NCBI GenBank assembly: GCA_018829965.1
Contig: JAHJTG010000005.1
Span: 148,774 to 212,773, forward strand
Direction: 5' to 3'
From: Patescibacteria group bacterium
GTDB taxonomy: Bacteria > Patescibacteriota > Minisyncoccia > Minisyncoccales > Staskawiczbacteraceae
Length of the DNA: 64,000 nt
Below are positions 6,522 through 60,729 of this stretch, piece after piece (position 1 is the stretch's first letter; the number at the start of each line of letters is the position of its first letter). The position numbers were made by a program, and so were the translations under genes. The notes below the pieces were generated by a model. That model saw only the letters and a program-made list of their open reading frames with translations. It did no database searches and was not told where the DNA came from.

Positions 6522-7739
6522 ATGAAAAGACATTTTTTTCTATTTGTAATTCTATTTTTATTATTCCCTTTTATTAGTAGCGGAGAAAGCGCTCCCGCTG
6601 TTGTTATCAACGAAATTGCATGGATGGGTACGGGTATTTCGGCGAATGACGAATGGATAGAGATGTATAATAATACAAACAACTCTATAAATTTTGATAG
6701 TTGGCAGCTAATTGCTCAAGACGGAACGCCAAAAATCAGCCTATTTGGAACAATCCCCGCTAATGGTTTTTATTTATTGGAAAGAACAAACGATGATACG
6801 GTGCCGGGGATTTCGGCTGATAAAATTTATACCGGCGCCTTGGGAAATGGCGGGGAAGATTTAAAACTTTATAATAGCTCTGGGAATTTAATTGACGAAG
6901 CCGATTGTTCTACAAAATGGCTTGCTGGCGACAATACCACAAAACAAACGATGGAAAAAACTCCTACTGGCTGGCAAACCAGTGAAAACCCGGGAGGGAC
7001 ACCGAAAGCGATCAACGAGAATCAAGAATTAAAAGATAAACCGACAGAGGATATTCCTCTGCTAACTAATCAAATAGCAGAAACGAACCTAACCGAAACC
7101 ATAGAATACCCTAGTGGCATTGTTTTTAATGAAATAATGCCAAACCCTGATGGACCTGACGAGCGAAATGAATGGATTGAATTATATAATGAAAACAATT
7201 TTGAAGTTGATATTTCTGACTGGAAAATTCATGATACCGAAGGAAAAATTACTAATTATATTTTTCCAGATGAAACAAAAATAAAACCAAACGGATATAT
7301 TATACTGACAAGACCTATAACAAAAATTACTTTAAATAATACAAAAGATGGATTGGTTTTTATGCAGCCAGATAGGAAAATAGCTAACGAAGTTAATTAT
7401 CAAAACGCGCCGAAAAATCAATCTTATAATAAAACGAGCTCCGGCTGGCCCGCCAGCAACGCTTCGCTTCGCTCGCGTAGCGATGCGGGCTGGGTATGGA
7501 GCGAAATATTAACTCCGAACTCAAAAAATATTATTTCTACAAAATCTAAAATAGCAGACGAAAAGACTATTACACCAAAAAATGAAGAACTGGGCAAAGA
7601 AAAATTATTGGCATCATTAAGCCAAGACAATGACAAAAAAAGTGATTTTAAAAATACATTCTTTATTGCTATCGGGGTTATTATTTTTTCCGCTACAACT
7701 TTTTATTTTTCAAAAAAGGCTCTAATAAAAATTACTTGA
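6522..7739 (+). CDS. Secreted protein with two lamin-tail-domain (LTD) repeats and a C-terminal TM anchor
   Basis: Signal peptide. INEIAWMGT...DEWIEMYN and FNEIMPNPDG...NEWIELYN LTD signatures. C-terminal hydrophobic helix. In-frame GC-rich insert at ~7440-7500. Confidence 0.6.
   Translation: MKRHFFLFVILFLLFPFISSGESAPAVVINEIAWMGTGISANDEWIEMYNNTNNSINFDSWQLIAQDGTPKISLFGTIPANGFYLLERTNDDTVPGISADKIYTGALGNGGEDLKLYNSSGNLIDEADCSTKWLAGDNTTKQTMEKTPTGWQTSENPGGTPKAINENQELKDKPTEDIPLLTNQIAETNLTETIEYPSGIVFNEIMPNPDGPDERNEWIELYNENNFEVDISDWKIHDTEGKITNYIFPDETKIKPNGYIILTRPITKITLNNTKDGLVFMQPDRKIANEVNYQNAPKNQSYNKTSSGWPASNASLRSRSDAGWVWSEILTPNSKNIISTKSKIADEKTITPKNEELGKEKLLASLSQDNDKKSDFKNTFFIAIGVIIFSATTFYFSKKALIKIT
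7440..7500. repeat. GC-rich palindromic insert in-frame inside the LTD gene (family E)
   Basis: ggctggcccgccagcaacgcttcgcttcgctcgcgtagcgatgcgggctggg. Related to the jag copies (gcttcgc...tagcgatgc(a/g)ggc). Encodes SSGWPASNASLRSRSDAGWVWS. Confidence 0.6.
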
Positions 7740-7848: not shown

Positions 7849-7900
7849 TTGACAAGACCTGTAATAAAAATTACGTTAAATGCGTCAATAACGTTCTGGC

Positions 7901-8000
7901 AACACCGGGTGTTGAGCGTTCCATGTTGAGCGTTCCACGGGTGTTTCCACGTTTCAACACCGGGTGTTGAGCGTTGTTGAGCGTTCGTGTTGAGCGTTCC
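7901..8000. repeat. Tandem/interspersed GTTGAGCGTT(CC) repeat array upstream of yebC
   Basis: At least five copies of gttgagcgtt and two copies of aacaccgggtgttgagcgtt within 100 bp. Confidence 0.8.
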
Positions 8001-16383: not shown

Positions 16384-16971
16384 ATGTTAAACTCTGATGA
16401 CATTAAAAAAGCGAAAGAAGCAACAGAAGAATTCTTTCAAAAGATGACGATCGGCGCCATTATTGACATTAACGCGGGCAATTTAAATACAGAGGATATT
16501 TTATCTGGACCTGCCCGCATCGACTACGCCGAAGGCGTTGCAGGCGGGGATAGTGAAGTAAAAGAAAATAAACCTGCCCGCAATGCTTCGCATAGCGATG
16601 CAGGCGGGAGCAATGATTCTATAGAGTTGAATATAAAGGTTGATGATCCGCAGATTTTAATTGGAGAAAGAGGGCAAACCTTAAACGAAATACAAAGGCT
16701 TTTGAGGGTGGTTCTTAATAAGAAATTAGATAAAGCGTTTTATTTAAACTTAGATATTAATGAATATAGGAAAAAGAAAACAGAGTACTTGAAAACTATG
16801 GCCAGGGAATTAGCTGATGAAGTAGTTTTAACAAAAGAAGAAAAGGTTCTTTCCCCGATGTCTTCTTATGAGAGAAGAATTATCCATGCGGAGCTAGCAG
16901 GCAGGCCAGATATAATAACAGAGAGTGAAGGAGAAGGGTTGGAAAGAAGAGTGGTGATAAAATTAAAATAG
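16384..16971 (+). CDS. jag: Jag/SpoIIIJ-associated RNA-binding protein (KH + R3H)
   Basis: C-terminal SYERRIIHAELAGRPDIITESEGEG (R3H), downstream of yidC. The linker carries two in-frame GC-rich hairpin repeats. Confidence 0.75.
   Translation: MLNSDDIKKAKEATEEFFQKMTIGAIIDINAGNLNTEDILSGPARIDYAEGVAGGDSEVKENKPARNASHSDAGGSNDSIELNIKVDDPQILIGERGQTLNEIQRLLRVVLNKKLDKAFYLNLDINEYRKKKTEYLKTMARELADEVVLTKEEKVLSPMSSYERRIIHAELAGRPDIITESEGEGLERRVVIKLK
16510..16608. repeat. Two tandem family E GC-rich hairpins in-frame inside jag
   Basis: cctgcccgcatcgactacgccgaaggcgttgcaggcggg (16510-16548) and cctgcccgcaatgcttcgcatagcgatgcaggcggg (16573-16608). The same termini occur at 35.5 kb. Confidence 0.75.
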
Positions 16972-26103: not shown

Positions 26104-26235
26104 AAATTTATGAAATTCTAAACTCTAATATCTAAATTCTAAACAAATTTCAATTTTCTAAATCCCAAATCACAAACACGTTTGAAATTTGAGCAATTGG
26201 GATTTGTGATTTATTTAGGATCTAGGATTTTAATT
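26104..26235. repeat. Family B hairpin element (CTAAAYY-heptamer arms), empty form
   Basis: Left arm aaattctaaactctaatatctaaattctaaa...aaatcccaaatcacaaa. Right arm gggatttgtgatttatttaggatctaggatttt. It fills the intercistronic gap. Confidence 0.65.
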
Positions 26236-26643
26236 CTACTTAGTATTTAGCTCTATTTTCGTTTTTAGCTTTTTAAGGCCACTTTTCTGACTTACTCCTA
26301 ATTTTACTTCTTCAACTTTTTTAAGAGTTGCTTTTTGTATTGTTTTGAAGGGATAAAGGGATTCTTTCTTTTTCCATGTATATGCTTTAGCGCCAGATAG
26401 AAATCCGATAGAATTGAAAACCATTGTTAATAAAGGAACGCCATTAATTTTAAAAAATCCTAAAGAAAGAGCGCCCCCGCCGACAATAATAGCGGCGACA
26501 ACAAAAATAGGGAAAGGGAGGATAGAGTAGAGTACAAAAATAACAGCACCGGCTACAGTAAGGTATATGAATTGTCGCATTGTTAAGAAAGAAGTCATTC
26601 TTGCTTCCTCTTCAATAAATTGTGGGACAGGATATTGTTCCAT
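26236..26643 (-). CDS. PrgI-family (VirB3-like) small T4SS membrane protein
   Basis: 135 aa. MEQYPVPQFIEEEARMTSFLTMRQFIYL followed by two TM helices. First gene of the VirB4 block. Confidence 0.6.
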   Translation of the reverse strand: MEQYPVPQFIEEEARMTSFLTMRQFIYLTVAGAVIFVLYSILPFPIFVVAAIIVGGGALSLGFFKINGVPLLTMVFNSIGFLSGAKAYTWKKKESLYPFKTIQKATLKKVEEVKLGVSQKSGLKKLKTKIELNTK

Positions 26644-27130
26644 AACAACTTAAATTCTAAATTCTAATTTCTAAATCCTAAATAAATCTAAAACTCAAAG
26701 GTTAAAATTCAAAACATTACATTATTTTGATTTCTCAACCATTGAGCCAAAAATTTTAGTCAGTTCGGTTGCTTCCTGTATTAATTTGTTCCCTTCTGTT
26801 TTTAGGGTTTCACTGTTAATTTCGACTAATCTTAACCAATAACAACTTTCTTTGGCTTCCTTGCGGCAAATTTTAATTCGCATTAGAAAATCTTTTTTGC
26901 TCAAAGTTTCATTCGCCTCAATATAATTTGCCCCGATAGACCCCGATGACCTAATAAGCTGTTTGCCGTCTTCTATGTTGGCAATAGTTCGGCTTAATTT
27001 TCTGACAAATTCTCTTACGTGTCTGGAAAATTCAAGCGTCCTGTCTTCAAGGTCATATCGTTTTGAATTTTGGATTTCGGACATTTAAATTTATTTAGAG
27101 TTTAGGATTTAGTGCTTAGAGTTTTAAATA
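26644..27130 (-). mobile_element. Family B hairpin element in its gene-bearing form, enclosing a four-helix-bundle (23S IVS protein family) ORF
   Basis: Arms taaattctaaattctaatttctaaatcctaaataaatctaaaactc (26650-) and atttatttagagtttaggatttagtgcttagag (27088-27125). The latter is near-identical to the right arm at 60.67-60.71 kb. Confidence 0.65.
26722..27084 (-). CDS. Four-helix-bundle protein (23S rRNA intervening-sequence protein family)
   Basis: 120 aa. LIRSSGSIGANYIEANETLSKKDFLMRIKICRKEAKESCYWLRL is the typical signature of that family. Confidence 0.75.
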   Translation of the reverse strand: MSEIQNSKRYDLEDRTLEFSRHVREFVRKLSRTIANIEDGKQLIRSSGSIGANYIEANETLSKKDFLMRIKICRKEAKESCYWLRLVEINSETLKTEGNKLIQEATELTKIFGSMVEKSK

Positions 27131-35494: not shown

Positions 35495-35752
35495 TTTCAC
35501 CCTACGAATTACCTGCCCGCATCGGCTACGCCAGCCCGCATGACTCGCGTCAGCGTGTCTGGCAGACCGGAAGCGTTGCAGGCGGGCGGAATTCGAATTA
35601 CGAATAAAATTCCTGCCCCTACGAATTACGAATTTAACCAAATTACGAATTTAAAAAACGGAGTGATTTATCTCCGCTTTTTTATTAGTACTCGGTTGCT
35701 ATCCCCTAAACCCTATACCCTAAACCCTGCACCCTATCCCTTAGACCCTAGC
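35495..35752. repeat. Repeat pile-up: a family E hairpin nested in family A arms, a terminator, then CCCTAAA-type heptamers
   Basis: - cctacgaatta|cctgcccgcatcggctacgcc...gaagcgttgcaggcggg|cggaattcgaattacgaata.
- Terminator cggag-tgatttat-ctccg plus a T-run (~35656-35690).
- ccctaaaccctataccctaaaccctgcaccctatcccttagaccctag at 35704-35752. Confidence 0.7.
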
Positions 35753-37328
35753 TCTCTTTTAACCTATACATTAAAGCCTCGGCGACATGTCCATATTGGA
35801 TGCTCTCTGCTTTATCTAAATCAGCAATAGTTCTGGCGACTTTTAACACTCTGTGATATCCTCGGGCAGATAGTTTTCCGGAATCAACGTATTGTTTTAG
35901 AAGATTTTGTCCTCGCGAGTCATGTTGACAGTACTTTTTTATATCAGGTAATCCCATTTCAGAGTTCGTAAAAATCTTATTAGAAGAAAATCTTGATTTT
36001 TGTATCTCACGGGCTGTCTCTATTTTTTCTCTTATTTTCTCGCTTGTATTTTCTGTTTCTTCTGAAACTAATTTTTCATATTTTACAGCCGGCACCTCAA
36101 TAAACAAATCCATTCTATCCATTAATGGCCCTGATAATTTTCTTCTATACATCGCGACTTGGGAAGTTGTGCAATTGCAGATTTTATCCGGGTCATTTAA
36201 ATATCCGCAAGGGCAGGGGTTGGAAGCTCCAATTAACATAAAACGGCTGGGAAAATTAAAAGTATTTTTTGCCCGAGAAACAGTTATTGTCCCTTCTTCA
36301 ATTGGTTGTCGGAGTGATTCTAAAACATCTCTATGGAACTCTGGAAATTCGTCCAGAAACAAAACTCCGCGATGCGCCAATGTTATTTCCCCTGGTCTTG
36401 GAGGATTTCCGCCGCCGAGCAAAGCCACTTCAGACGAAATATGATGCGGGGAACGGAATGGTCTGAAATTAATAAGCGGCTTGTCATCCGGCAGTAATCC
36501 AGCTATGCTGTAAATTTTTGTGACCTCTAACGATTCTTGAAAATTTAATCTCGGCAAGATAGAAGGGATTGCTTTGGCTAATAAAGTTTTTCCTCCGCCC
36601 GGCGGTCCGAAAAGAAAAAGATTATGACCTCCTGCGGCGGTGATTTCCAAAGCTCTTTTCGCATATTCTTGGCCTTTAATCCAAGCCAAGTTCACGGGAT
36701 AATCAGGGTTTTGGAATAATTCTTCTATTTTAAAATCCTCTGGGGCAAAAGATTTCTTTCCTTCTAAATACTTTATTACATCTGTTAATGATTCGCATCC
36801 TATTACTTTTAGGCTATTATCCTGCGCCCCATCTTTTTTAGATAAGGCGGTTGCTAAAACTGCCTCTTTTTCGTTTGCTCTTGGCAAGATTATTTCTTTA
36901 ATTCCTTGTCTTTTAGCCAATAAAGCAAAAGATAAAGCGCCTTTAATCGGCCGTAATCTTCCATCTAAGGATAGCTCGCCAAAAAATATTTTATCTTGCG
37001 ATTCAAATTTAATCTGGTTAGACGCAGAGAGAAATGAAAGAGCTATTGGCAAATCAAAAAGCGCCCCTTCTTTTTTTAAATCAGCAGGAGCTAATCCTAT
37101 CAGAACTTTATATGGTCTTTGATAGGGAGAGAGAAGCTTCGAACTTTTAATGGCGCTGCCAATCCTTTCTTTTGATTCTTCAACCGCCTTGTCTGGAAGC
37201 CCTACTATATTAAAAGAGCGGAGACCGTGTGAAACATCAGCCTCCACTTCTACAATTTTTGCTTCAAGTCCTACTATTGACGCCGAAAAAACCTTTGATG
37301 GCATAGAATAATAAATCCTAAACTCCAA
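35748..37328 (-). CDS. comM: Mg-chelatase-like AAA+ protein YifB/ComM
   Basis: 526 aa. Lon-like N-terminal domain, GPPGGGKTLLAK, GVLFLDEFPEF, and the Zn motif CPCGY...CNC. Confidence 0.85.
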   Translation of the reverse strand: MEFRIYYSMPSKVFSASIVGLEAKIVEVEADVSHGLRSFNIVGLPDKAVEESKERIGSAIKSSKLLSPYQRPYKVLIGLAPADLKKEGALFDLPIALSFLSASNQIKFESQDKIFFGELSLDGRLRPIKGALSFALLAKRQGIKEIILPRANEKEAVLATALSKKDGAQDNSLKVIGCESLTDVIKYLEGKKSFAPEDFKIEELFQNPDYPVNLAWIKGQEYAKRALEITAAGGHNLFLFGPPGGGKTLLAKAIPSILPRLNFQESLEVTKIYSIAGLLPDDKPLINFRPFRSPHHISSEVALLGGGNPPRPGEITLAHRGVLFLDEFPEFHRDVLESLRQPIEEGTITVSRAKNTFNFPSRFMLIGASNPCPCGYLNDPDKICNCTTSQVAMYRRKLSGPLMDRMDLFIEVPAVKYEKLVSEETENTSEKIREKIETAREIQKSRFSSNKIFTNSEMGLPDIKKYCQHDSRGQNLLKQYVDSGKLSARGYHRVLKVARTIADLDKAESIQYGHVAEALMYRLKES

Positions 37329-37480
37329 ACTCTAAATTCTAATCACTAAATTCTAAATAAATCCAAAAACTAAAATCAAAAATTCAAAACTTTATAATTT
37401 AAATATTTGGATTTTGAAATTGTTTAGGCCTATTTAGCTCGTCGAGCCAACGGTTCGAATAGAGATTTAGGATTTAGGAT
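37329..37480. repeat. Family B hairpin element, empty form
   Basis: aatcctaaactccaaactctaaattctaatcactaaattctaaataaatccaaaaactaaaatcaaaaattcaaaac ... agagatttaggatttaggatttt. It spans the comM start and the dksA-like stop. Confidence 0.65.
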
Positions 37481-41848: not shown

Positions 41849-41869
41849 AATGCTTTTACTTCGTAAAAG

Positions 41870-41968
41870 AAACTCTAAATTCTAATATCTAAACTCTAAA
41901 TGTGTTTTGGATTTTGTGATTTAGAATTTGTGATTTGTTTAGAATTTAGAATTTGGGATTTAGGATTT
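41870..41968. repeat. Family B hairpin element
   Basis: aaactctaaattctaatatctaaactctaaatg...tgatttagaatttgtgatttgtttagaatttagaatttgggatttaggattt. Confidence 0.65.
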
Positions 41969-41969
41969 A

Positions 41970-42233
41970 TTACTTTACTCCTAATTTTTTACAAATTTCA
42001 CTGTATCTTTTTGCAGACTCTTTTTTAAGATAAGCTAAAAGCTTTTTTCTTTTAACCACCATTTTTATTAAACCCCTCTTTGAATGAAAATCTTTAGGAT
42101 GTTTTTTGAGATGTAAAACTAACCTGTTAATTTCTTCGCTTAACAAGCCAATCTGGACCTCTGGAGAACCAGTGTCAGTTTCGTGAATATTGTGCTTCTT
42201 AATAATCTTTGTTTTTTCTTCCGTCTTTAGCAT
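41970..42233 (-). CDS. rpsO: 30S ribosomal protein S15
   Basis: 87 aa. [39 protein letters not shown]. Confidence 0.95.
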
Positions 42234-42352: not shown

Positions 42353-42407
42353 TTGTCTTTTATTGATTTTAAATATATATTGTAAAACGATTTATGTCAA
42401 ACGAATG

Positions 42408-42480
42408 TGCCCCCAGCAGGGCTCGAACCTGCGACTCACAGCTTAAGAGGCTGTTACTCTACCGACTGAGTTATGGGGGC
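42408..42480 (-). tRNA. tRNA-Lys (anticodon CTT)
   Basis: GCCCCCATAACTCAGTCGGTAGAGTAACAGCCTCTTAAGCTGTGAGTCGCAGGTTCGAGCCCTGCTGGGGGCA folds as a clean cloverleaf. Anticodon loop CTCTTAA. CCA is not encoded. Confidence 0.9.
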
Positions 42481-42499
42481 TTAGTTAAACTTTAGTATT

Positions 42500-43228
42500 T
42501 TATGAGACGTTTATTGCCCTGGAGACTTTTTCAAGTGATTTCCATTCTTGTTGTGTTAGTTCTGTTTTTGCGGAAATATCTTGTAAAACTACTTTAATCC
42601 AACCGAAAATTCTGTGACGCATATCAGTTCCTCGGGGTACAGTAATTTTTATTGTTCCATAATAAAGATTATTTTTCTTGTAATTTTTACTTAATGGTTT
42701 AACAAAACTTTTACCGAAATTTTCTAAAGGTATGCCAGTTAATTGAGACCAAAAGCTTTTAATCTTTAAATCGTTTTGTTGAGGATAAATATTAAGCCAG
42801 GCCTTCAAGTCTTTTGGCGCTACCCCAAGTATTTTTTTAAACCACTTTACTATAAATGAGATAAGATAAGGATCAGAATTTGTAATTTCTAAACCGTTCT
42901 TTTTATTGCCTTCTGCCCAATATAATGCAGCACCGAATAGGCGATAGCTTTCCAATGAAATAGAGTTACTAACTTCTTTTTTAGCATTTTTGATAATTTC
43001 AGCGATTTCACGTATTCTTCTTTCTTTTTGGCTCTGAGGACCTTTTGATAAAATTGAAATTTGTTTTGTATATAATCGTTTTCTATGTTTCGGTGAGAGA
43101 GGTATATTTTTCAACCACAGACTGAGTGTACTTTTTGCAACCTTTACTGATTTTTTTATTTCATTATAGCTTCGCCCTTGTTTTCTAAGTTTTATAGCTT
43201 TTATTTTAAGAAGATTATAGTTCTTCAT
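42500..43228 (-). CDS. HTH + LAGLIDADG-like (single-motif) homing-endonuclease-like protein, tRNA-adjacent
   Basis: N-terminal resolvase-type HTH (RKQGRSYNEIKKSVKVAKSTLSLWLKN). LFGAALYWAEGNKKNGLEITNSDPYLISFIVKWFKKILGV resembles a LAGLIDADG core. The stop lies 19 nt upstream of tRNA-Lys. A paralog sits at 63630-64000. Confidence 0.45.
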   Translation of the reverse strand: MKNYNLLKIKAIKLRKQGRSYNEIKKSVKVAKSTLSLWLKNIPLSPKHRKRLYTKQISILSKGPQSQKERRIREIAEIIKNAKKEVSNSISLESYRLFGAALYWAEGNKKNGLEITNSDPYLISFIVKWFKKILGVAPKDLKAWLNIYPQQNDLKIKSFWSQLTGIPLENFGKSFVKPLSKNYKKNNLYYGTIKITVPRGTDMRHRIFGWIKVVLQDISAKTELTQQEWKSLEKVSRAINVS

Positions 43229-43334
43229 ACTTCCAATTATACCACACAGAGAAGCCGAACTGCAATCCGTTGATTAATTTTTAGTGAGTTTGTTTTTCTC
43301 ATTAACTATTAAGTTACGGGCACGCTAAATGAGA

Positions 43335-43694
43335 TTAAGGACCGACGGTATATGTTGAACCGAGGGCTCCTAAAATGAAATTAATGATAAGTACAGACCC
43401 GTATGCCAACACCATACCGATAACGGTTGCTATAAGAATTTTTTTGCCCGTGTTCTTCAGTTCCGGGTTTCCGCCAGATATTAACAATACTATTCCGCCT
43501 ATTGTTAGAAATAAAATAGATAGTGGTAAAACAAGAAAATCCATTATAAAATTTATTATCCTCGGGATTATATCTTGGAAATCTTGGAAACTACAAGGGT
43601 CATCTGCGCATGATACTATCGATTCTCCGTGGACAAAACTTATTGCTGGAATCAATAAAACAAAAACGAAAAATATAAGAAATAATTTTTTCAT
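43335..43694 (-). CDS. Stand-alone TrbC/VirB2-like T4SS pilin (119 aa)
   Basis: Signal peptide followed by two TM helices: FIMDFLVLPLSILFLTIGGIVLLISGGNPELKNTGKKILIATVIGMVLAYGSVLIINFI. Same architecture as the N-termini of the three fusion proteins. Confidence 0.6.
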   Translation of the reverse strand: MKKLFLIFFVFVLLIPAISFVHGESIVSCADDPCSFQDFQDIIPRIINFIMDFLVLPLSILFLTIGGIVLLISGGNPELKNTGKKILIATVIGMVLAYGSVLIINFILGALGSTYTVGP

Positions 43695-43764
43695 AGAGTT
43701 TTTATCAATTTTAAATTTTTGTTTAACAACTTAATACTAAATATTGTTTTAACCACGTTTGACG

Positions 43765-43840
43765 TGGTGCCCTCGCCAGGATTTGAACCCGGAACTTTTG
43801 CTTCGAAGGCAAAGATGATATCCAGTTTCAACACGAGGGC
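43765..43840 (-). tRNA. tRNA-Arg (anticodon TCG), CCA encoded
   Basis: GCCCTCGTGTTGAAACTGGATATCATCTTTGCCTTCGAAGCAAAAGTTCCGGGTTCAAATCCTGGCGAGGGCACCA. Anticodon loop CTTCGAA. Confidence 0.85.
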
Positions 43841-44068
43841 CCTATATCCTAATCCTGTAAAAACAGGACGGGTCGGGCTCGACCCCGCTAAGCGGAGTAT
43901 AGAGCTTATTTAAACTTTATCATAAAATTGTAAAAAATCAAACCCAGTAAAATTCTTTACTGGGTGCAGTCCCGCACCGTGCTTTGCTTTGGTGCGGGGC
44001 AATTTTAGATAATTTTTAATTGAAATAAATAAAAAATTAAGATAACATAAATTTGTATTATTAAATTT

Positions 44069-45640
44069 ATGTTAATCCCAAAAGAAGTAAGGTCTGCTAT
44101 TGATAAGTTAAAGAAGCAAGGATTTGAAGCATATATTGTGGGCGGTTGTGTCCGCGATTTTTTGCTTGCCTCGCCGAAGTTTGCAAACGAAGGCGGGATT
44201 GGGATTGCCGCCCAAAGTAAATCTTTGGGCGAGCCTCGCCAAAGGCGGGAACCCGCGGATTGGGATATAACAACTAATGCTAAACCAGAAGAAATCCAAA
44301 AAGTATTTCCAAAGAACTTTTACGAGAACAAGTTTTTAACTGTAACTATTCAAACTGGCAGTAAAAAATCAAAATTAAAAGAAATAGAGGTGACAACTTA
44401 TCGATTAGAGGCGAAATATTCAGACAAACGTCATCCGGATGGAATAAGGTTCGCAAAAACATTAGAAGAAGACCTGGCCAGGCGCGATTTCACCGTAAAT
44501 GCAATCGCGCTGGAAATTCTAAATTCTAAATCCGAAATCCCAAATAAATCTAAAATTCAAAATTCAAAATTCAAAATTGTGGATCTGTTTGACGGCCAAA
44601 CAGACTTAAAAAATAAAATTATTAGAACTGTCGGAAATCCAGAAGAGCGATTTTCTGAAGACGCCCTAAGAATGCTCAGAGCAATAAGATTTGCTACAAC
44701 GTTAGGCTTTACAATTGAGCTCAAAACCTTAGAAGCTATTAAAAAGAACGCCGAGTGGCTAAAAATGATATCAGAAGAAAGAATAAGAGATGAACTCGTA
44801 AAAATTATTATGTCAGAGAGAGCAGATGAAGGAATAGAATTATTGCGTGAAACAGGGCTTTTACGGTTTTTTATCCCAGAGTTATTAGAGGGTTATAAAG
44901 TAGGCCAGAATAAACACCATATTTATGATTGTTGGCAACACTCTTTGCTTTCTTTAAAATATAGCGCTCAGAAAAAGTTTAATCAAAATGTAAGATTAGC
45001 TGCCTTATTTCACGATATTGGCAAACCCCGCGCTAAACGCGGCGATGGCCTTGATTCAACTTTCTATAACCACGAAATAATTGGAGCTAGAATGACCCAA
45101 GGAATTTTAGAAAGATTAAAATTCTCCAAGAAAGATATTGAAAAAATAGTAAAGTTGGTTCGTTACCACCTTTTTTACTATAACGTTGATGAGGTTAAAG
45201 ATGCTTCTGTAAGGCGTTTAGTTCGTAATGTCGGTCCAGACAGCATGGAAGAGCTTTTACAGGTTAGAATGTCAGACAGAATAGGTTCTGGCGTGCCTAA
45301 AGCTGAGCCGTATAAGTTAAGACATCTAAAATATATTGTTGATAAGGTTGCCCAAGACCCGATTTCAGCAAAAATGCTTAAAATTAGCGGGAATGACGTG
45401 ATGAAAATTTTAAATATTAAACCGGGACCAAAGATCGGACAGATTTTAGATATTTTGCTAAGCTATGTTTTGGCTGAGCCTAAGAATAACAAAAAAGCAT
45501 TTTTAGAGAAAGAAGTTTTAAAACTCGGTAAATTATTAGATAGTGATTTGAAAAAAATAGCCGATGGGGCTAAAAAAGAGAGAGAAAAAACAGAAACGAA
45601 AAGAGATGAGATGACAAAGCAGAAGTATTGGGTAACATAG
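44069..45640 (+). CDS. cca: CCA-adding enzyme / poly(A) polymerase family nucleotidyltransferase with HD domain
   Basis: GGCVRDFLL...DWDITT head motif, RAIRFA, and HD domain LFHDIGK. Two repeat-derived in-frame inserts (44165-44258 and 44514-44578). Confidence 0.85.
   Translation: MLIPKEVRSAIDKLKKQGFEAYIVGGCVRDFLLASPKFANEGGIGIAAQSKSLGEPRQRREPADWDITTNAKPEEIQKVFPKNFYENKFLTVTIQTGSKKSKLKEIEVTTYRLEAKYSDKRHPDGIRFAKTLEEDLARRDFTVNAIALEILNSKSEIPNKSKIQNSKFKIVDLFDGQTDLKNKIIRTVGNPEERFSEDALRMLRAIRFATTLGFTIELKTLEAIKKNAEWLKMISEERIRDELVKIIMSERADEGIELLRETGLLRFFIPELLEGYKVGQNKHHIYDCWQHSLLSLKYSAQKKFNQNVRLAALFHDIGKPRAKRGDGLDSTFYNHEIIGARMTQGILERLKFSKKDIEKIVKLVRYHLFYYNVDEVKDASVRRLVRNVGPDSMEELLQVRMSDRIGSGVPKAEPYKLRHLKYIVDKVAQDPISAKMLKISGNDVMKILNIKPGPKIGQILDILLSYVLAEPKNNKKAFLEKEVLKLGKLLDSDLKKIADGAKKEREKTETKRDEMTKQKYWVT
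44165..44258. repeat. GC-rich palindromic insert (family E-like) in-frame inside the catalytic head motif of cca
   Basis: gcctcgccgaagtttgcaaacgaaggcgggattgggattgccgcccaaagtaaatctttgggcgagcctcgccaaaggcgggaacccgcgg. It encodes ASPKFANEGGIGIAAQSKSLGEPRQRREPA between VRDFLL and DWDITT. Confidence 0.7.
44514..44578. repeat. Family B heptamer arm in-frame inside cca
   Basis: aaattctaaattctaaatccgaaatcccaaataaatctaaaattcaaaattcaaaattc encodes ILNSKSEIPNKSKIQNSKFKI. Compare the four-helix ORF start MSEIQNSK. Confidence 0.65.
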
Positions 45641-45658
45641 ATAGAATTTTTAAAACAA

Positions 45659-45729
45659 CGGGAGTTGGTTTAACGGTAGAATCTACGGTTCGGGACCGTA
45701 GGGCGAGAGTTCGACTCTCTCACTCCCGA
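45659..45729 (+). tRNA. tRNA-Pro (anticodon CGG)
   Basis: CGGGAGTTGGTTTAACGGTAGAATCTACGGTTCGGGACCGTAGGGCGAGAGTTCGACTCTCTCACTCCCGA. Anticodon loop TTCGGGA with G37. Confidence 0.85.
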
Positions 45730-45779
45730 ATGATGGTGGCAGAGCATTGTGTCCGCGTTGCAGAAATGGCGGTTCGCCT

Positions 45780-46700
45780 CTATTCTCCCTGAAATTTTAA
45801 ATTAATAAAATTCTGAAATTTTTCTTTTAGATTTTTATTTAGAAGATTTTTAGGATAAATATCTTTTGGGTAGATTCCGATTAAAGGGATATTATGTTTT
45901 TTACATAACATCTCTTTTTCTTTTATAGAGCGGTCGTACTTTGGACTGTCATTTGCTAATCCAAAGTATTCAACAAAAATTTCTTTATCTTCGATAATTA
46001 TTTTCCAATCTGATTTATGATTAGTCTCTGGATAATGAGCATCTCTTTCATGTAAAATACTGTTTTTATAAAACCAATTATCAATCAAAAGCTCTGAAAT
46101 AGAGTCGCACAAGTGGCCATCCAAAGCTTTAGCACGAGATCTTTTATACATTCTGTTGTCGTGAGATCTATTTGGCGTAAACCCCGCTGCTAAAACAGCA
46201 TTGTTCCATGAGCCGAAAGATTTTCTGCACGCCCCATTCACACCATTTAATATTTCGCGTCTTGCCGGAACCCTTTTTAGTTTTTTAAAGTATTTTCGGA
46301 TGATATCTAATAATTCTTCTGGCTTATATCGTTCTGCGTCAACCCTACAACTCAATGAACAGTACTTTTTATTGCTGGTACTTTTTCTATATTTCTTCCC
46401 ACATTGTTCGCAAATTTTAAATTTAGGTAGTAAGCGTTTTCTATCATATCTTTTATTATTAACTATCATTGCACAGGAGTGAGAACAATAATTATGAATA
46501 GAAATACCACTTAATGTTCGTTCAAATTTTCTTCCACAATTTTCACAGGAGATTTCTTTTTTTGTAGTTTTGTGTTTAAATTGACATTTTGTTGAACAGT
46601 ACTGATTCCAGCCAAATTTTATAGCTTCATTAAAACGCCCAGTTAAGCGGTAAAAAGTTTTTTTACAATTTTTACAGCGAACTTTTATAGTTTTAACCAT
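45780..46700 (-). CDS. Multi-zinc-ribbon + homing-endonuclease-associated-repeat + PD-(D/E)XK-like nuclease protein
   Basis: - Four CxxC...C...C ribbons (CKNCKK, CENCGRK, CEQCGKK and others).
- RVPARREILNGVNGACRKSFGSWNNAVLAAGF, typical of the HNH/homing-endonuclease-associated repeat.
- C-terminal LCDSISELLIDNWFYKNSILHERDAHYP...DWKI...IFVEYFG (nuclease-like). Confidence 0.45.
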   Translation of the reverse strand: MVKTIKVRCKNCKKTFYRLTGRFNEAIKFGWNQYCSTKCQFKHKTTKKEISCENCGRKFERTLSGISIHNYCSHSCAMIVNNKRYDRKRLLPKFKICEQCGKKYRKSTSNKKYCSLSCRVDAERYKPEELLDIIRKYFKKLKRVPARREILNGVNGACRKSFGSWNNAVLAAGFTPNRSHDNRMYKRSRAKALDGHLCDSISELLIDNWFYKNSILHERDAHYPETNHKSDWKIIIEDKEIFVEYFGLANDSPKYDRSIKEKEMLCKKHNIPLIGIYPKDIYPKNLLNKNLKEKFQNFINLKFQGE

Positions 46701-46877
46701 ATTTTATCCATTTACAGTTTTGATTTTTAGGATTAGTATTATAAATGAATTAGAAATTCTTATTTAATTATAACACAAAATGGGAGAGTATAGACTGAGC
46801 GCAAATCCCAGCGCCACGACAAATATGATATAGTGGAAAAAATTGAATAGGAATAAAAAATAATTTAAATTAGTTTT

Positions 46878-47729
46878 ATGCTAAATAAAAAAACAAATAA
46901 CAAACAAATCGCTATTTTTGAAGGTCAGAAAATTCGTCGAACATGGAACGAGAAAAAAGAACTATGGTATTTTTCCGTAATAGATGTCATCGCGACATTA
47001 ACGGACAGCGTTAATCCGCGCGATTATTGGTTTAAAATGAAAATTAGGGTGAAAACAGAGGATGGAGCTGAGTTGTCGACATTTTGTCGACAACTGAAAT
47101 TACCGGCTTCAGACGGTAAATATTACTTAACTGATGTCGCTAACACGGAAGGAATTTTGAGAATAATCCAATCTATCCCATCTCCTAAGGCCGAACCATT
47201 CAAGCTTTGGTTAGCAAAAGTTGGCTATGAAAGGATACAAGAAACAACAGATCCGGAAAAATCAATCAATCGGGGCAGAATGAATTGGCAGAGGTTGGGT
47301 CGAAGCGCAAAATGGATTCAGCAAAGAATGATGGGGCAGGAAGTTAGAAATAAACTAACTGATTATTGGAAAGATAACGAGGTTAAAGAAAAAGATGAGT
47401 ATGCTATTTTGACGAATATAATCCATCAAGAATGGAGCGATTTGTCGGTTAAGGAACATAAAAATTTGAAGAAGTTAAAAACGCAAAATTTACGCGATCA
47501 TATGTCTGATGCCGAATTGGTCTTTACTGCTCTTGCCGAACTTTCCACTCGCCAAATCGCGGAAACTATGGAAACAAAAGGATTGGAATAAAATAAAACT
47601 CCAGCGAGAAAAGGCGGTCGTATCGCCAAAAATGCGCGCATAGAATTAGAGAGTAAAACGGGTAAAAAGGTAGTAAGCAGGAAGAATTTTTTACAATTTC
47701 CGGAAAACGGCAAAAAATTATTAAAATAA
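46878..47729 (+). pseudogene. dinD: DinD-like (Bro-N domain, DNA-damage-inducible protein D family) gene interrupted by an in-frame TAA
   Basis: WYFSVIDVIATLTDS...LRIIQSIPSPKAEPFKLWLAKVGYERIQE. TAA at 47589-47591. The same frame continues NKTPARKGGRIAKNARIELESKTGKKVVSRKNFL...* to 47729, which looks like the normal family C-terminus. Confidence 0.6.
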
Positions 47730-56458: not shown

Positions 56459-56589
56459 TATATAATTAATTCATTCGGTCGTCCCGCTAAGCGGGACTTT
56501 CTCATTCATAATTATAGAAACAACCTCACTATTTATATAATTAATCTTTCGGTCGTCCCGCTAAGCGGGATTCCCTCTCTCATAATTAT
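56459..56589 (+). repeat. Two ~56-bp direct repeats, each with a TATATAAT box and a GTCCCGCTAAGCGGGA hairpin, upstream of yraN
   Basis: Unit 1 at 56459-56515 and unit 2 at 56534-56589, a 75-bp period. Unit 2 ends in the yraN ATG. Unit 1 ends in ATA at the equivalent position. Confidence 0.7.
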
Positions 56590-59321: not shown

Positions 59322-60590
59322 ATGAAACATCAAATTAAAAAACTACCAGCATCACAAATAGAAATTGAAGTAGAAATTCCTTCCGAAGATTTGGATAAGT
59401 TTTTAGAAAAAGCCTTTGCGCATTTTAACGAACACTTAAAAGTGGATGGTTTTAGGCAAGGAAACATCCCGAAAAATATCGTGGAAGAAAAAGTTGGCAA
59501 GGAAAATATACTTGCCGAAGCAGCGGATTTAGCAGTGAAGGATGCGTATGCAAAAATAATTAAAGAAAATAATTTGGAGCCTATTACTGCGCCGGATGTA
59601 CAGGTTTTGAAGTTGGCAAAAGGCAATCCTTTCATATTCAAAATAAAAGTGAATCTCTTGCCGGAAATTGGTCTCGGAGACTATAACAAGATTGCTTCGC
59701 AAGTTAAAAAGAATAAAATTTCTGTCAGCGAAGAAGAAATTAATAACTCGTTGGAATATATCAGAAAATCAAGATCTAAGTTTTCCCAACTTGATAGACC
59801 TGCTCAAGAAAAAGATTTTATTGAAATTGAATACGAAAGTTCTCAATTAGGTTCTGAAAAAATGAAGGACCAGTTTATCCTAGGGGAGGGCGGATTCATG
59901 CCTGGTTTTGAACAAAAAATCGTAGGGATGAAAACCGGCGAGGAAAAAGAGTTCTCTGTAGCCTTTCCGCAAAACGCTCAAAGAAAAGATTTAGCCGGAA
60001 AGGAAGTTTCTTTTAAAACTAAAATGCTCGGCGTTAAAAAAGTAGAAATACCAGAAGCTAATGACGATTTTGTTAAAAGTTTAGGGAAGTTTGAGAGCCT
60101 TTCAGCTCTTAGAGATAATCTTAAAGAAGGAATAACAATGGAAAAAGAAGAACAAGAAAGAGAAAATAGAAGAAAGGAGATCTTAGAGAAAATAGTTGAA
60201 AAATCAAAAATTGATATTCCTCAATCTTTGATTGATTCTGAAAAAGAAAACCTATTAAAGAATTTTAAAAACAGAATAAGCCAAAACCATAAAATCAGTT
60301 TTGAAGAATATTTGGCTTCGGTAAAACAAGACGAAAAGACAATTTTAGAATCTTTTGTAAAAGAGGCAGAGAAAAAGATCAAAAACTATCTAATTTTAAA
60401 AGAAATCGGAAAGAGAGAAAATATTCTAATTAGCGAGGAAGAAATTGAAAAGGAAGTCAATAAAAATATCAAAAATTATTCAAAAGAGGTTTTAGAAAAA
60501 ATTGACATTAACGAATTTAAAGAGTATATTAAAGGAGTAATATATAACGAAAAGATTTTCCAATTATTGGAAAATCTTTTAAAACCCTAA
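59322..60590 (+). CDS. tig: Trigger factor
   Basis: 422 aa. N-terminal ribosome-binding region GFRQGNIP, a central FKBP-like region and a C-terminal arm domain. Upstream of clpP as usual. Confidence 0.85.
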   Translation: MKHQIKKLPASQIEIEVEIPSEDLDKFLEKAFAHFNEHLKVDGFRQGNIPKNIVEEKVGKENILAEAADLAVKDAYAKIIKENNLEPITAPDVQVLKLAKGNPFIFKIKVNLLPEIGLGDYNKIASQVKKNKISVSEEEINNSLEYIRKSRSKFSQLDRPAQEKDFIEIEYESSQLGSEKMKDQFILGEGGFMPGFEQKIVGMKTGEEKEFSVAFPQNAQRKDLAGKEVSFKTKMLGVKKVEIPEANDDFVKSLGKFESLSALRDNLKEGITMEKEEQERENRRKEILEKIVEKSKIDIPQSLIDSEKENLLKNFKNRISQNHKISFEEYLASVKQDEKTILESFVKEAEKKIKNYLILKEIGKRENILISEEEIEKEVNKNIKNYSKEVLEKIDINEFKEYIKGVIYNEKIFQLLENLLKP

Positions 60591-60712
60591 ATTCGAAATC
60601 CTAAACTCTAAACAATATTAAAATTATAAATCCAAAGCACAAAACCAGTTTAGAATTTTAAATTTTTAGCATTTGGATTTATTTAGGATTTAGAGATTAG
60701 TGCTTAGAATTT
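60586..60712. repeat. Family B hairpin element between tig and clpP
   Basis: ccctaaattcgaaatcctaaactctaaac...atttggatttatttaggatttagagattagtgcttagaattt. Confidence 0.65.
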
Positions 60713-60729
60713 AATTTATTAAAATTTTT

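Follow-up and report, generated by a model that had tools for sequence, protein, structure and literature searches.

Probable selfish hairpin elements, in frame beside the active-site motif of a Patescibacteria CCA-adding enzyme, belong to a family found in tRNA-linked GIY-YIG cassettes

We examined a 64,000-nt stretch of contig JAHJTG010000005.1 (assembly GCA_018829965.1) from a Patescibacteria bacterium of the Staskawiczbacteraceae, hereafter called the window, along which all positions are numbered unless a locus is named. It carries a cca gene for a CCA-adding tRNA nucleotidyltransferase of class II, and GC-rich DNA lies within this gene between the two halves of motif A, the second of which holds the catalytic aspartates. 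A codon-level comparison of twelve cca loci resolved this insert into two elements, A and B, on either side of a host tripeptide. The parts of the locus are the following.

44069-45640, + strand: cca, encoding 523 amino acids (from the open reading frame list); a CCA-adding tRNA nucleotidyltransferase of class II that ends in a C-terminal HD domain
44141-44164, + strand: first half of motif A, GGCVRDFL, residues 25-32; G25, G26, C27, R29 and D30 invariant; a helix in the model of an insert-free ortholog
44165-44197, + strand: element A, a single GC-rich hairpin with a predicted stem, cttGCCTCGCC-gaagtttgcaaacgaa-GGCGGG, 33 nt, encoding LASPKFANEGG
44198-44206, + strand: host linker tripeptide IGI (att ggg att); RGV, RGI, LDK or similar in orthologs
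44207-44248, + strand: element B, a twin hairpin, GCCGCC-caaagtaaatcttt-GGGCGAGC/CTCGCC-aaa-GGCGG, 42 nt, encoding AAQSKSLGEPRQRR
44249-44266, + strand: second half of motif A, EPADWD, with the catalytic Asp64 and Asp66; D64, W65 and D66 invariant; the alignment with the Protein Data Bank chain restarts at residue 61

The protein matches the Pfam families PF01743 (PolyA_pol head), PF12627 (PolyA_pol_RNAbd), PF01966 (HD) and PF13735 (tRNA_NucTran2_2), the first at E 2.7e-29 over residues 21-186, though its profile has only 126 positions. Its best BLASTP relatives, 66-75% identical, come from Patescibacteria of the Parcubacteria, Staskawiczbacteria and Nealsonbacteria groups, and the nearest ortholog is 77-80% identical over shared columns. 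Among solved structures, phmmer matched the sequence to 6IBP (E 1.4e-42), and Foldseek ranked the Bacillus CCA enzyme 1MIV_A first for the AlphaFold2 model (E 1e-17, TM(target) 0.73).

Residues 25-66 of this protein read GGCVRDFL-LASPKFANEGG-IGI-AAQSKSLGEPRQRR-EPADWD. In 100 of 120 orthologs aligned with MAFFT, only three residues (RGV, RGI, LDK or similar) link FL to EP.DWD, and phmmer aligns the chain of 6IBP contiguously (...LLGK/TPHDVD; chain residues 75 to 76) where the query carries residues 36-60. An earlier reading of the same DNA, made from its letters alone (the sequence-only reading), had reported that a GC-rich insert splits motif A, and in this it was right. It gave the insert as about 94 nt and 30 residues; a GC-rich segment of about 94 nt is present, but the net insertion amounts to 25 residues (75 nt). 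The inserted DNA has a GC content of 53-62%, compared with 35% for the window, and it is in frame without stop codons. The octamer gcctcgcc occurs twice, at 44168-44175 and 44233-44240, as had been noted, and the pattern CTCGCC-N3-30-GGCGGGA has two matches in the window, both within the insert, where none would be expected. Of the two hairpins proposed earlier, gcccaaag-taaat-ctttgggc is perfect; ccgaagtttgcaaacgaagg proved only partly palindromic, the real stem being formed by CTCGCC with GGCGGG and GTTTG with CAAAC. What had been missed is that the 94 nt are two elements around a host tripeptide, and that the twin hairpin belongs to tRNA-linked GIY-YIG cassettes (see below).

The two elements are separable. 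Element A is present in the cca genes of L002, L004, L005 and L006 and absent from those of L007 and L211; in other orthologs it forms a clean block of 30-33 nt between FL and the tripeptide, with LASPKFNEGG and LARRSKSEGG as 30-nt examples. Element B sits between the tripeptide and EP, where cca orthologs have a block of 42-51 nt, and follows the plan GCCGCC-[stem-loop]-GGCGAGC/CTCGCC-[stem-loop]-GGCGG with the central join GGCGAGCCTCGCC; hairpin 1 spans 44207-44234 and hairpin 2 spans 44235-44249. The same plan, with compensatory changes in the stems, recurs in the cca genes of L001, L003, L005, L208, L209 and L210. The two insertion points are 9 nt apart, and orthologs carry A only, B only, both or neither. 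GGGATT in the host linker codons forms the 5′ flank of the twin hairpin, and GAACCC at the start of the EPADWD codons its 3′ flank. The encoded peptide stretches include ASPKFANEGGIGIAAQSK and SLGEPR. As a whole, the insert folds as three hairpins with an energy modestly better than that of shuffled sequences (z = -1.76), which is a weak point.

The sequence-only reading had called the insert repeat-derived. Within the window, blastn returned no second copy, the twin hairpin being single in the 64 kb; strong support for the claim came from other genomes. We scanned 185,579 species genomes with a frame-agnostic pattern; about 100 of the 120 matches listed are chance matches in high-GC genomes, and only loci below 48% GC are informative. 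Among the matches listed, there are at least 17 such loci, mostly from Patescibacteria, and all have the exact twin-hairpin architecture. The pooled loci, on low-GC contigs that are mostly patescibacterial, comprise at least 44 distinct twin hairpins, with 42 and 40 distinct variable segments in hairpins 1 and 2, and across the 44 pooled copies these segments are nearly all self-complementary (median z of -3.9 and -3.1 against shuffles). Copies were compared by regular expressions and per-copy folding; MAFFT misaligned the right hairpin, which varies in length. For five twin hairpins, RNAalifold gave a consensus structure of 21 pairs, 8 of which show compensatory double changes. The bases of the stems are conserved (GCCGCC...GGCGAGCCTCGCC...GGCGGG), and the distal stems vary but keep pairing. 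Positions 44207-44249 of the window fit both the family pattern, GCCGCY...GYGAGCCTCGYY...GGYGGG, and the fold, with self-complementary variable stems. Judged by sequence and predicted pairing, the cca insert thus belongs to a family of hairpin elements spread through the Patescibacteria. Element A was met in cca genes only, always with the left flank GATTTTTTG/CTTGCC. No Rfam family matched the insert (at E <= 1) or its relatives, and the 50-aa concatenated insert peptide yielded no candidate in a protein database search.

Some metagenome-assembled genomes hold several twin-hairpin copies per bin; L071, L087 and L114 share one. That bin (Hainich-H41-bin252-1) is labelled Brocadiaceae, and two further carriers are also labelled as lying outside the Patescibacteria, L074 (Gammaproteobacteria) and L026 (Planctomycetia). 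The twin hairpins of these bins lie on contigs of 37-46% GC, and either the contigs are mis-binned or the host range is wider.

Outside genes, the twin hairpin has a characteristic setting. In L047, L071 and L074, the intergenic copy is placed at the 3′ end of a small GIY-YIG gene (about 85 aa), which itself follows closely on a tRNA gene. We compared a sample of 80 metagenomic loci, 200 kb in all, that encode relatives of this protein; these and the individually read loci, on Patescibacteria-like contigs, are located as follows.

L128-L207 (metagenome): GIY-YIG/tRNA/twin-hairpin loci
L047, 6632-6946: GIY-YIG/tRNA/twin-hairpin locus
L071, 655-1038: GIY-YIG/tRNA/twin-hairpin locus
L136, 1365-1835: GIY-YIG/tRNA/twin-hairpin locus

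Across the 200 kb, the hairpin core YGAGGCTCGY has 64 occurrences on the sense strand of the GIY-YIG gene and two on the antisense strand, and only 4 lie away from the ends of the GIY-YIG open reading frame (ORF). The core is found less than 200 nt from the GIY-YIG ORF in 53 of the 80 loci, beside tRNA genes or fragments. The cassettes border directly on tRNA genes, whose 3′ end recurs after the hairpin. One arrangement begins with a complete tRNA-Gly or tRNA-Leu gene, followed directly by the ORF and then by GGGTTC-[twin hairpin]-GAWTCC and the repeated tRNA 3′ end, so that the hairpin breaks the T-loop of a duplicated tRNA 3′ half. In a second, a 5′ fragment of tRNA-Gly(CCC) lies upstream of the ORF and has the hairpin in its anticodon loop, with a complete tRNA downstream; in a third, the upstream tRNA-Gly is complete and the hairpin is found at its 3′ end, where CCGCTC repeats flank it. 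By its sequence and placement, the twin hairpin is a component of tRNA-linked GIY-YIG cassettes, which have the look of a mobile cassette not yet described. In cca, the twin hairpin stands alone, as a solo copy with no adjacent GIY-YIG ORF. In the literature on palindromic, REP (repetitive extragenic palindromic), MITE (miniature inverted-repeat transposable element), in-frame or GIY-YIG/tRNA elements of Patescibacteria (the candidate phyla radiation, CPR), we found no description of the element family or of its tie to GIY-YIG genes. Apparently, neither the family nor its link with the minimal GIY-YIG cassettes found at tRNA genes has been described.

Some cassettes contain arrays of three or more hairpin units or tandem whole twin hairpins (L148 246-370, L155 652-790, and the upstream regions of L154 and L192), and therefore the units can multiply in tandem. 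A further small GIY-YIG gene is found about 800 nt upstream of the cca gene of P0001 (L006 8860-9250), with a complete tRNA after it and, before it, the 5′ fragment of a tRNA and a perfect hairpin of another kind (tgctccctgcctgccggcaggcagggagca).

The distribution of the elements among cca orthologs is patchy. The same loop holds related in-frame elements in 20 further orthologs (about 17% of 120). Element A is carried by ortholog P0106 but not by P0108, at 89% identity, and by P0027 and P0032 but not by P0093, at 91-92% identity. Carriers are scattered among close non-carriers in the ortholog clustering, and therefore gain, loss or both must be frequent and precise to the codon. There are also small clades with similar element A sequences, P0041/P0106/P0090 and P0027/P0032.

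Copies of the family within coding regions are not confined to cca. They lie in topA (topoisomerase I, L082), ychF (YchF, L095), rpoA (RpoA, L126) and genes for several hypothetical proteins, all of which are uninterrupted; two of the in-ORF copies run antisense. The remaining copies lie between genes, with no visible sign of a split gene. In the set of 44 pooled copies, every one of the 15 in ORFs (seven in cca, eight elsewhere) has a frame-preserving length, as opposed to 15 of the 29 non-coding copies. The element peptide is read in different frames among copies, as GEPR in some and ASLA in others. Since all in-ORF copies preserve the frame and are free of stops, and only about half of the non-coding copies keep to such lengths, translation rather than removal is the parsimonious reading, with this length comparison as its main support: a frame constraint would be needless if the element were removed. 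We consider that the cca insert is probably transcribed and translated. A pooled excess of one length class (17 of 22 copies) had been entertained as proof of coding constraint and was dropped, as non-coding cassette copies show a weaker excess too. An assembly artefact, which the sequence-only reading had named as a way for its claim to fail, is ruled out because independent assemblies from other samples carry homologous inserts.

We then considered what the inserts may do to the enzyme. G25, G26, R29, D30, D64, D66, R138, R139, D140, E197, D198 and R201 occupy invariant columns in a 68-sequence ortholog alignment, which includes the query, so that their retention in the query is given by construction; the glycine pair and Arg/Asp of motif A, the DxD, the RRD and the EDxxR are all among these columns. 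The AlphaFold2 model has a mean predicted local distance difference test score (pLDDT) of 80.8, with values below 50 only at residues 34-58 and 155-165, that is, in the insert described here and in a second one (see below), and at the C-terminal residues 520-523. The fold otherwise matches that of CCA enzymes, with the inserts as disordered loops. The added 25 residues, rich in A, G, E, P, R and S, would most likely form a disordered loop at the surface. No second cca gene, for which the sequence-only reading had wanted the genome checked, exists within the 64-kb window. From sequence and model together, it is likely that the gene at 44069-45640 remains the working CCA-adding enzyme of the organism.

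Our best reading is that two selfish elements, three with the second site, lie in permissive loops of an essential enzyme. We think it likely that they are selfish hairpin elements, translated and tolerated in cca in the manner of the Rickettsia palindromic elements (RPEs), and that the edge of the GIY-YIG/tRNA cassettes is the chief seat of their family. A tolerated loop with RPEs as a parallel had been the first of the explanations offered by the sequence-only reading, and it is the one that fared well: the insert is in frame, the invariant residues are kept, and the model shows a disordered loop on an otherwise normal CCA fold. Several points weigh against what we propose for the elements and their origin. 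The query model loses the helix after the glycine pair (pLDDT 69 at residues 21-30), which is modelled confidently in the insert-free ortholog P0002 (helix 26-32, strand 41-44), and some local structural cost near the active site is conceivable from the models. The test of lengths has some ascertainment bias, as the in-ORF class needs an open frame. The T-loop position of the hairpin is found in only one of the three cassette arrangements. The window contains no GIY-YIG gene by tblastn and no other twin hairpin, and the proposed source is thus not visible in this fragment. As regards the choice of the cca loop (discussed below), a G-[V/I] linker is also common in orthologs without an element, and the topA, ychF and rpoA copies have no clear T-loop-like flanks.

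Removal of the insert, as an RNA intron, by ribosomal bypassing or by intein-like excision, would leave the mature motif A contiguous. The GC-rich segment with its three stable hairpins does superficially resemble the byps of Magnusiomyces or the gap of T4 gene 60; these precedents also make it inaccurate to call removal of so short an element unprecedented, as the sequence-only reading had done. Patescibacteria moreover have many group I introns in their tRNA and rRNA genes, and those reported at tRNA position 35/36 (PMC13011429) are distinct from the hairpins described here. However, the insert has no Rfam intron or ribozyme match at E <= 1, its 94 nt are far under the size of a self-splicing intron, its 25 residues are far too few for an intein and include no intein motifs, and there is neither an in-frame stop nor a matched pair of take-off and landing codons. 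Together with the frame-preserving length of all in-ORF copies, unlike that of the non-coding ones, this renders removal highly improbable. Impairment of the gene, the third explanation offered earlier, would mean that the loop disrupts the active site of an incipient pseudogene and that CCA ends are encoded in the tRNA genes or added by a paralog elsewhere. The lost helix and the low confidence at residues 21-60, neither seen in the insert-free control, would fit this, as would the gathering of two inserts in one head domain; yet the 523-codon frame is intact, every invariant column is kept, and the distance to the nearest ortholog (80% identity over shared columns) is usual for the set. Insert-bearing orthologs in many lineages are intact too, which indicates long-term purifying selection, and the window offers no second cca to take over. 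We regard impairment as quite unlikely.

Two further explanations concern why the elements are there. The hairpins might be kept as useful, either as mRNA structures that control the expression or stability of cca or as a peptide loop with an influence on tRNA binding. Stem pairing has indeed been held through many compensatory changes, about 17% of orthologs have such elements in the same loop, and the hairpins are conserved parts of the GIY-YIG cassette unit; against this, presence and absence differ between orthologs that are 89-92% identical, the peptide frame varies among copies (GEPR or ASLA), the same element occurs in unrelated genes and intergenic DNA, and the loop is modelled as disordered. 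Usefulness to the host is therefore unlikely in our view. Alternatively, a single ancient insertion, specific to cca, could have descended vertically with repeated loss and without ever being a mobile or dispersed element. That element A was met in cca genes only, with the same left flank, and that small clades share similar versions of it (named above) is what such a history would leave. It does not account for the many non-cca copies of element B with the same architecture, for insertion points 9 nt apart that are occupied separately or together, or for carriers scattered over the ortholog clustering, and we consider it very unlikely. Selfish elements, translated and tolerated, thus remain our preferred reading.

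Why the cca loop should be struck repeatedly may be related to its resemblance to a tRNA gene. On the cca sense strand, element B runs antisense to its orientation in the cassettes. Its cca flanks, GGGATT/GAACCCG, match the flanks of the hairpin copies embedded in T-loops (the first cassette arrangement), GGRATY/AACCCR, and other B-bearing cca genes have GGAGTT/.../GAGCCA and similar flanks. Uninterrupted orthologs read GGAATTGAACC or GTTGAACCC here, encoding G-I/V-E-P, with 9 of 12 positions matching the antisense T-loop GGATTCGAACCC. These matches are suggestive only that the cca linker mimics the natural target of the element and so acts as a hot spot. In the mechanism that we envisage, cassette-end DNA would be copied or transposed into target-like sequences, giving rise to solo copies; the cca linker codons G-[I/V]-E-P, which read GGRRTT/GARCC, would present an antisense T-loop mimic and hence a recurrent landing site; and selection would keep only frame-preserving copies in permissive loops. 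Elements A and B would each have been inserted separately, in frame, around the 3-codon linker that joins the GGxVRDxL helix to the DxD strand. We tentatively suggest, as a possibility for which the odds are less than even, that the twin hairpin is the cis-acting end of an undescribed mobile element of Patescibacteria, made up of the GIY-YIG gene of about 85 aa and the hairpin, which homes into tRNA loops (the T-loop, the anticodon loop and the 3′ end), duplicates the displaced part of the tRNA and sheds solo hairpins into loop mimics such as the G-[I/V]-E-P codons of cca. If this is true, a parasite that targets tRNA leaves its mark time and again in the gene of an enzyme that matures tRNA.

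The closest analogues are the RPEs of Rickettsia, reportedly described by Ogata et al. in 2000 (cf. PMC1779305). Both are short, palindromic, selfish DNA found in frame in essential genes of a reduced-genome bacterium and also in intergenic DNA, and the family described here likewise lies in frame and stop-free in several unrelated genes (seven cca genes, topA, ychF, rpoA and other ORFs). RPEs are translated into extra surface loops and protein function is kept, which would hold for the cca inserts as far as can be inferred. The differences are considerable. The cca-type elements measure 30-60 nt as against about 100-150 bp for RPEs; they are GC-rich in an AT-rich genome and have a low copy number per genome fragment; they combine conserved stem bases with hypervariable distal stems, unlike the near-identical RPE copies; and they are linked to GIY-YIG cassettes at tRNA genes. 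By inspection and size, the only comparison made, there is no evident sequence likeness, and homology would not be expected given the differences in size, GC content and host phylum; we therefore regard the family as an analogue of the RPEs and not as a member. An RPE-like case in CPR bacteria would mean that even ultra-small genomes tolerate selfish hairpin DNA in essential genes, here beside an active-site motif, and the family supplies concrete, sequence-defined elements for such tolerance. It would also explain recurrent ‘low-complexity’ peptides in Patescibacteria proteins (AAQSKALGEPR, ASLAPSGRE, ARRSLGEGG), which matters when CPR proteins are annotated, aligned or used in phylogenetics. 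In the enzyme, the linker that joins the helix to the DxD strand would be a naturally permissive insertion site.

Yeast mitochondria harbour GC-rich mini-elements, such as the var1 GC clusters of S. cerevisiae and the byps of Magnusiomyces capitatus. Like the elements described here, these are GC-rich hairpins of 30-55 nt that invade AT-rich genomes, coding regions included. The byps disrupt the reading frame, and ribosomes skip them, whereas all in-ORF copies here are frame-preserving and stop-free, and the present host is a bacterium and not an organelle.

The closest known parallel to the cassettes is phage T4 SegB, a free-standing GIY-YIG homing endonuclease encoded in a tRNA gene cluster (PMC2330249). 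The cassettes resemble it in having a small free-standing GIY-YIG gene beside tRNA genes, and their duplicated tRNA flank is what would be expected for homing with co-conversion. The cassette proteins differ in being predicted nucleases of only about 85 aa, with the catalytic domain alone; the cassettes have a conserved twin hairpin and belong to Patescibacteria, not to a phage; and the window is without such a gene. The small tRNA-associated GIY-YIG genes and their hairpins would constitute a candidate nuclease-hairpin-target system.

REP sequences and bacterial interspersed mosaic elements (BIMEs), with their REP-associated tyrosine transposases (RAYTs), and MITEs (PMC3184786, PMC10969869) are likewise small, dispersed, GC-rich bacterial stem-loops, for which mobilisation in trans may come from a protein recognising the foot of the hairpin. 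Unlike these, the twin hairpins start with GCCGCC without a 5′ GTAG, their hairpins are in tandem and not inverted, many copies lie inside genes, and the associated protein is a GIY-YIG nuclease and not a Y1 transposase. Neither the cca junctions nor the flanks of 22 copies that were read show an evident target-site duplication, and no Y1 transposase turned up beside the copies whose flanks were read, although no search aimed at it was made. Mobilisation by an IS200/IS605 transposase or a RAYT, which the hairpins and the precise gain and loss had suggested, was dropped: no such gene was seen near copies, there is no GTAG head, and the link is to GIY-YIG genes instead.

The second insert in the head domain is of a different kind.

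44514-44581, + strand: a further in-frame insert of about 21 residues (ILNSKSEIPNKSKIQNSKFKI) that follows the RRDFTVNA strand; an arm of the dispersed repeat family D1, which is AT-rich and rich in heptamers

It too had been called repeat-derived, and a repeat search of the window bore this out: it is a D1 member, 82% identical to the reference copy. Nine D1 copies occur in the window; eight have stops in all frames, and the cca copy alone is open and alone lies in an ORF. The site after RRDFT.NA is hypervariable in orthologs, often with SKIQNSKF-type peptides, and the model has pLDDT below 50 at residues 155-165. The D1 family (AAATTCT/AAATCCT heptamers) occurs as inverted, MITE-like arm pairs at 26113-27124, 37304-37394, 41869-41977 and 60578-60721, intergenic except for the cca copy; the arms are adjacent at 41869-41968 and 60582-60712 and about 400 nt apart at 26652/27084. 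In the cca gene of P0012 (L005 2290-2400), the second insert contains a nested GC-rich hairpin (ccccttgacccgcagggcatccccgcagg), an element within an element.

Around cca (42407-47591), the window has a patch of tRNA genes and selfish-looking genes. The tRNA genes are tRNA-Lys (42407-42480), tRNA-Arg (43765-43840) and tRNA-Pro (45659-45729), the last of which starts 19 nt past the cca stop; the protein-coding neighbours are listed here.

42500-43228, - strand: helix-turn-helix protein
43335-43694, - strand: ORF resembling a type IV secretion system pilin
45780-46700, - strand: HNH_repeat homing-endonuclease-associated protein
46878-47591, + strand: Bro-N protein

The HNH_repeat gene adjoins cca in L003 and L005 too. 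Other repeats are present elsewhere in the window. A different family of GC-rich hairpins, with the bases CCTGCCCGC...GCAGGCGGG, lies at 16501-16559, 16572-16615, 35497-35602 and 7427-7506, and is probably what the sequence-only reading had called ‘family A’. A short hairpin, tcgtcccgctaagcgggac, recurs at 56472-56505 and 56545-56583, and a similar one, ccccgctaagcgg, is found between tRNA-Arg and cca (43854-43906). Finally, a GC-rich island at 7892-7989 is densely filled with direct and inverted repeats of caacaccgggtgttgagcgttcc.

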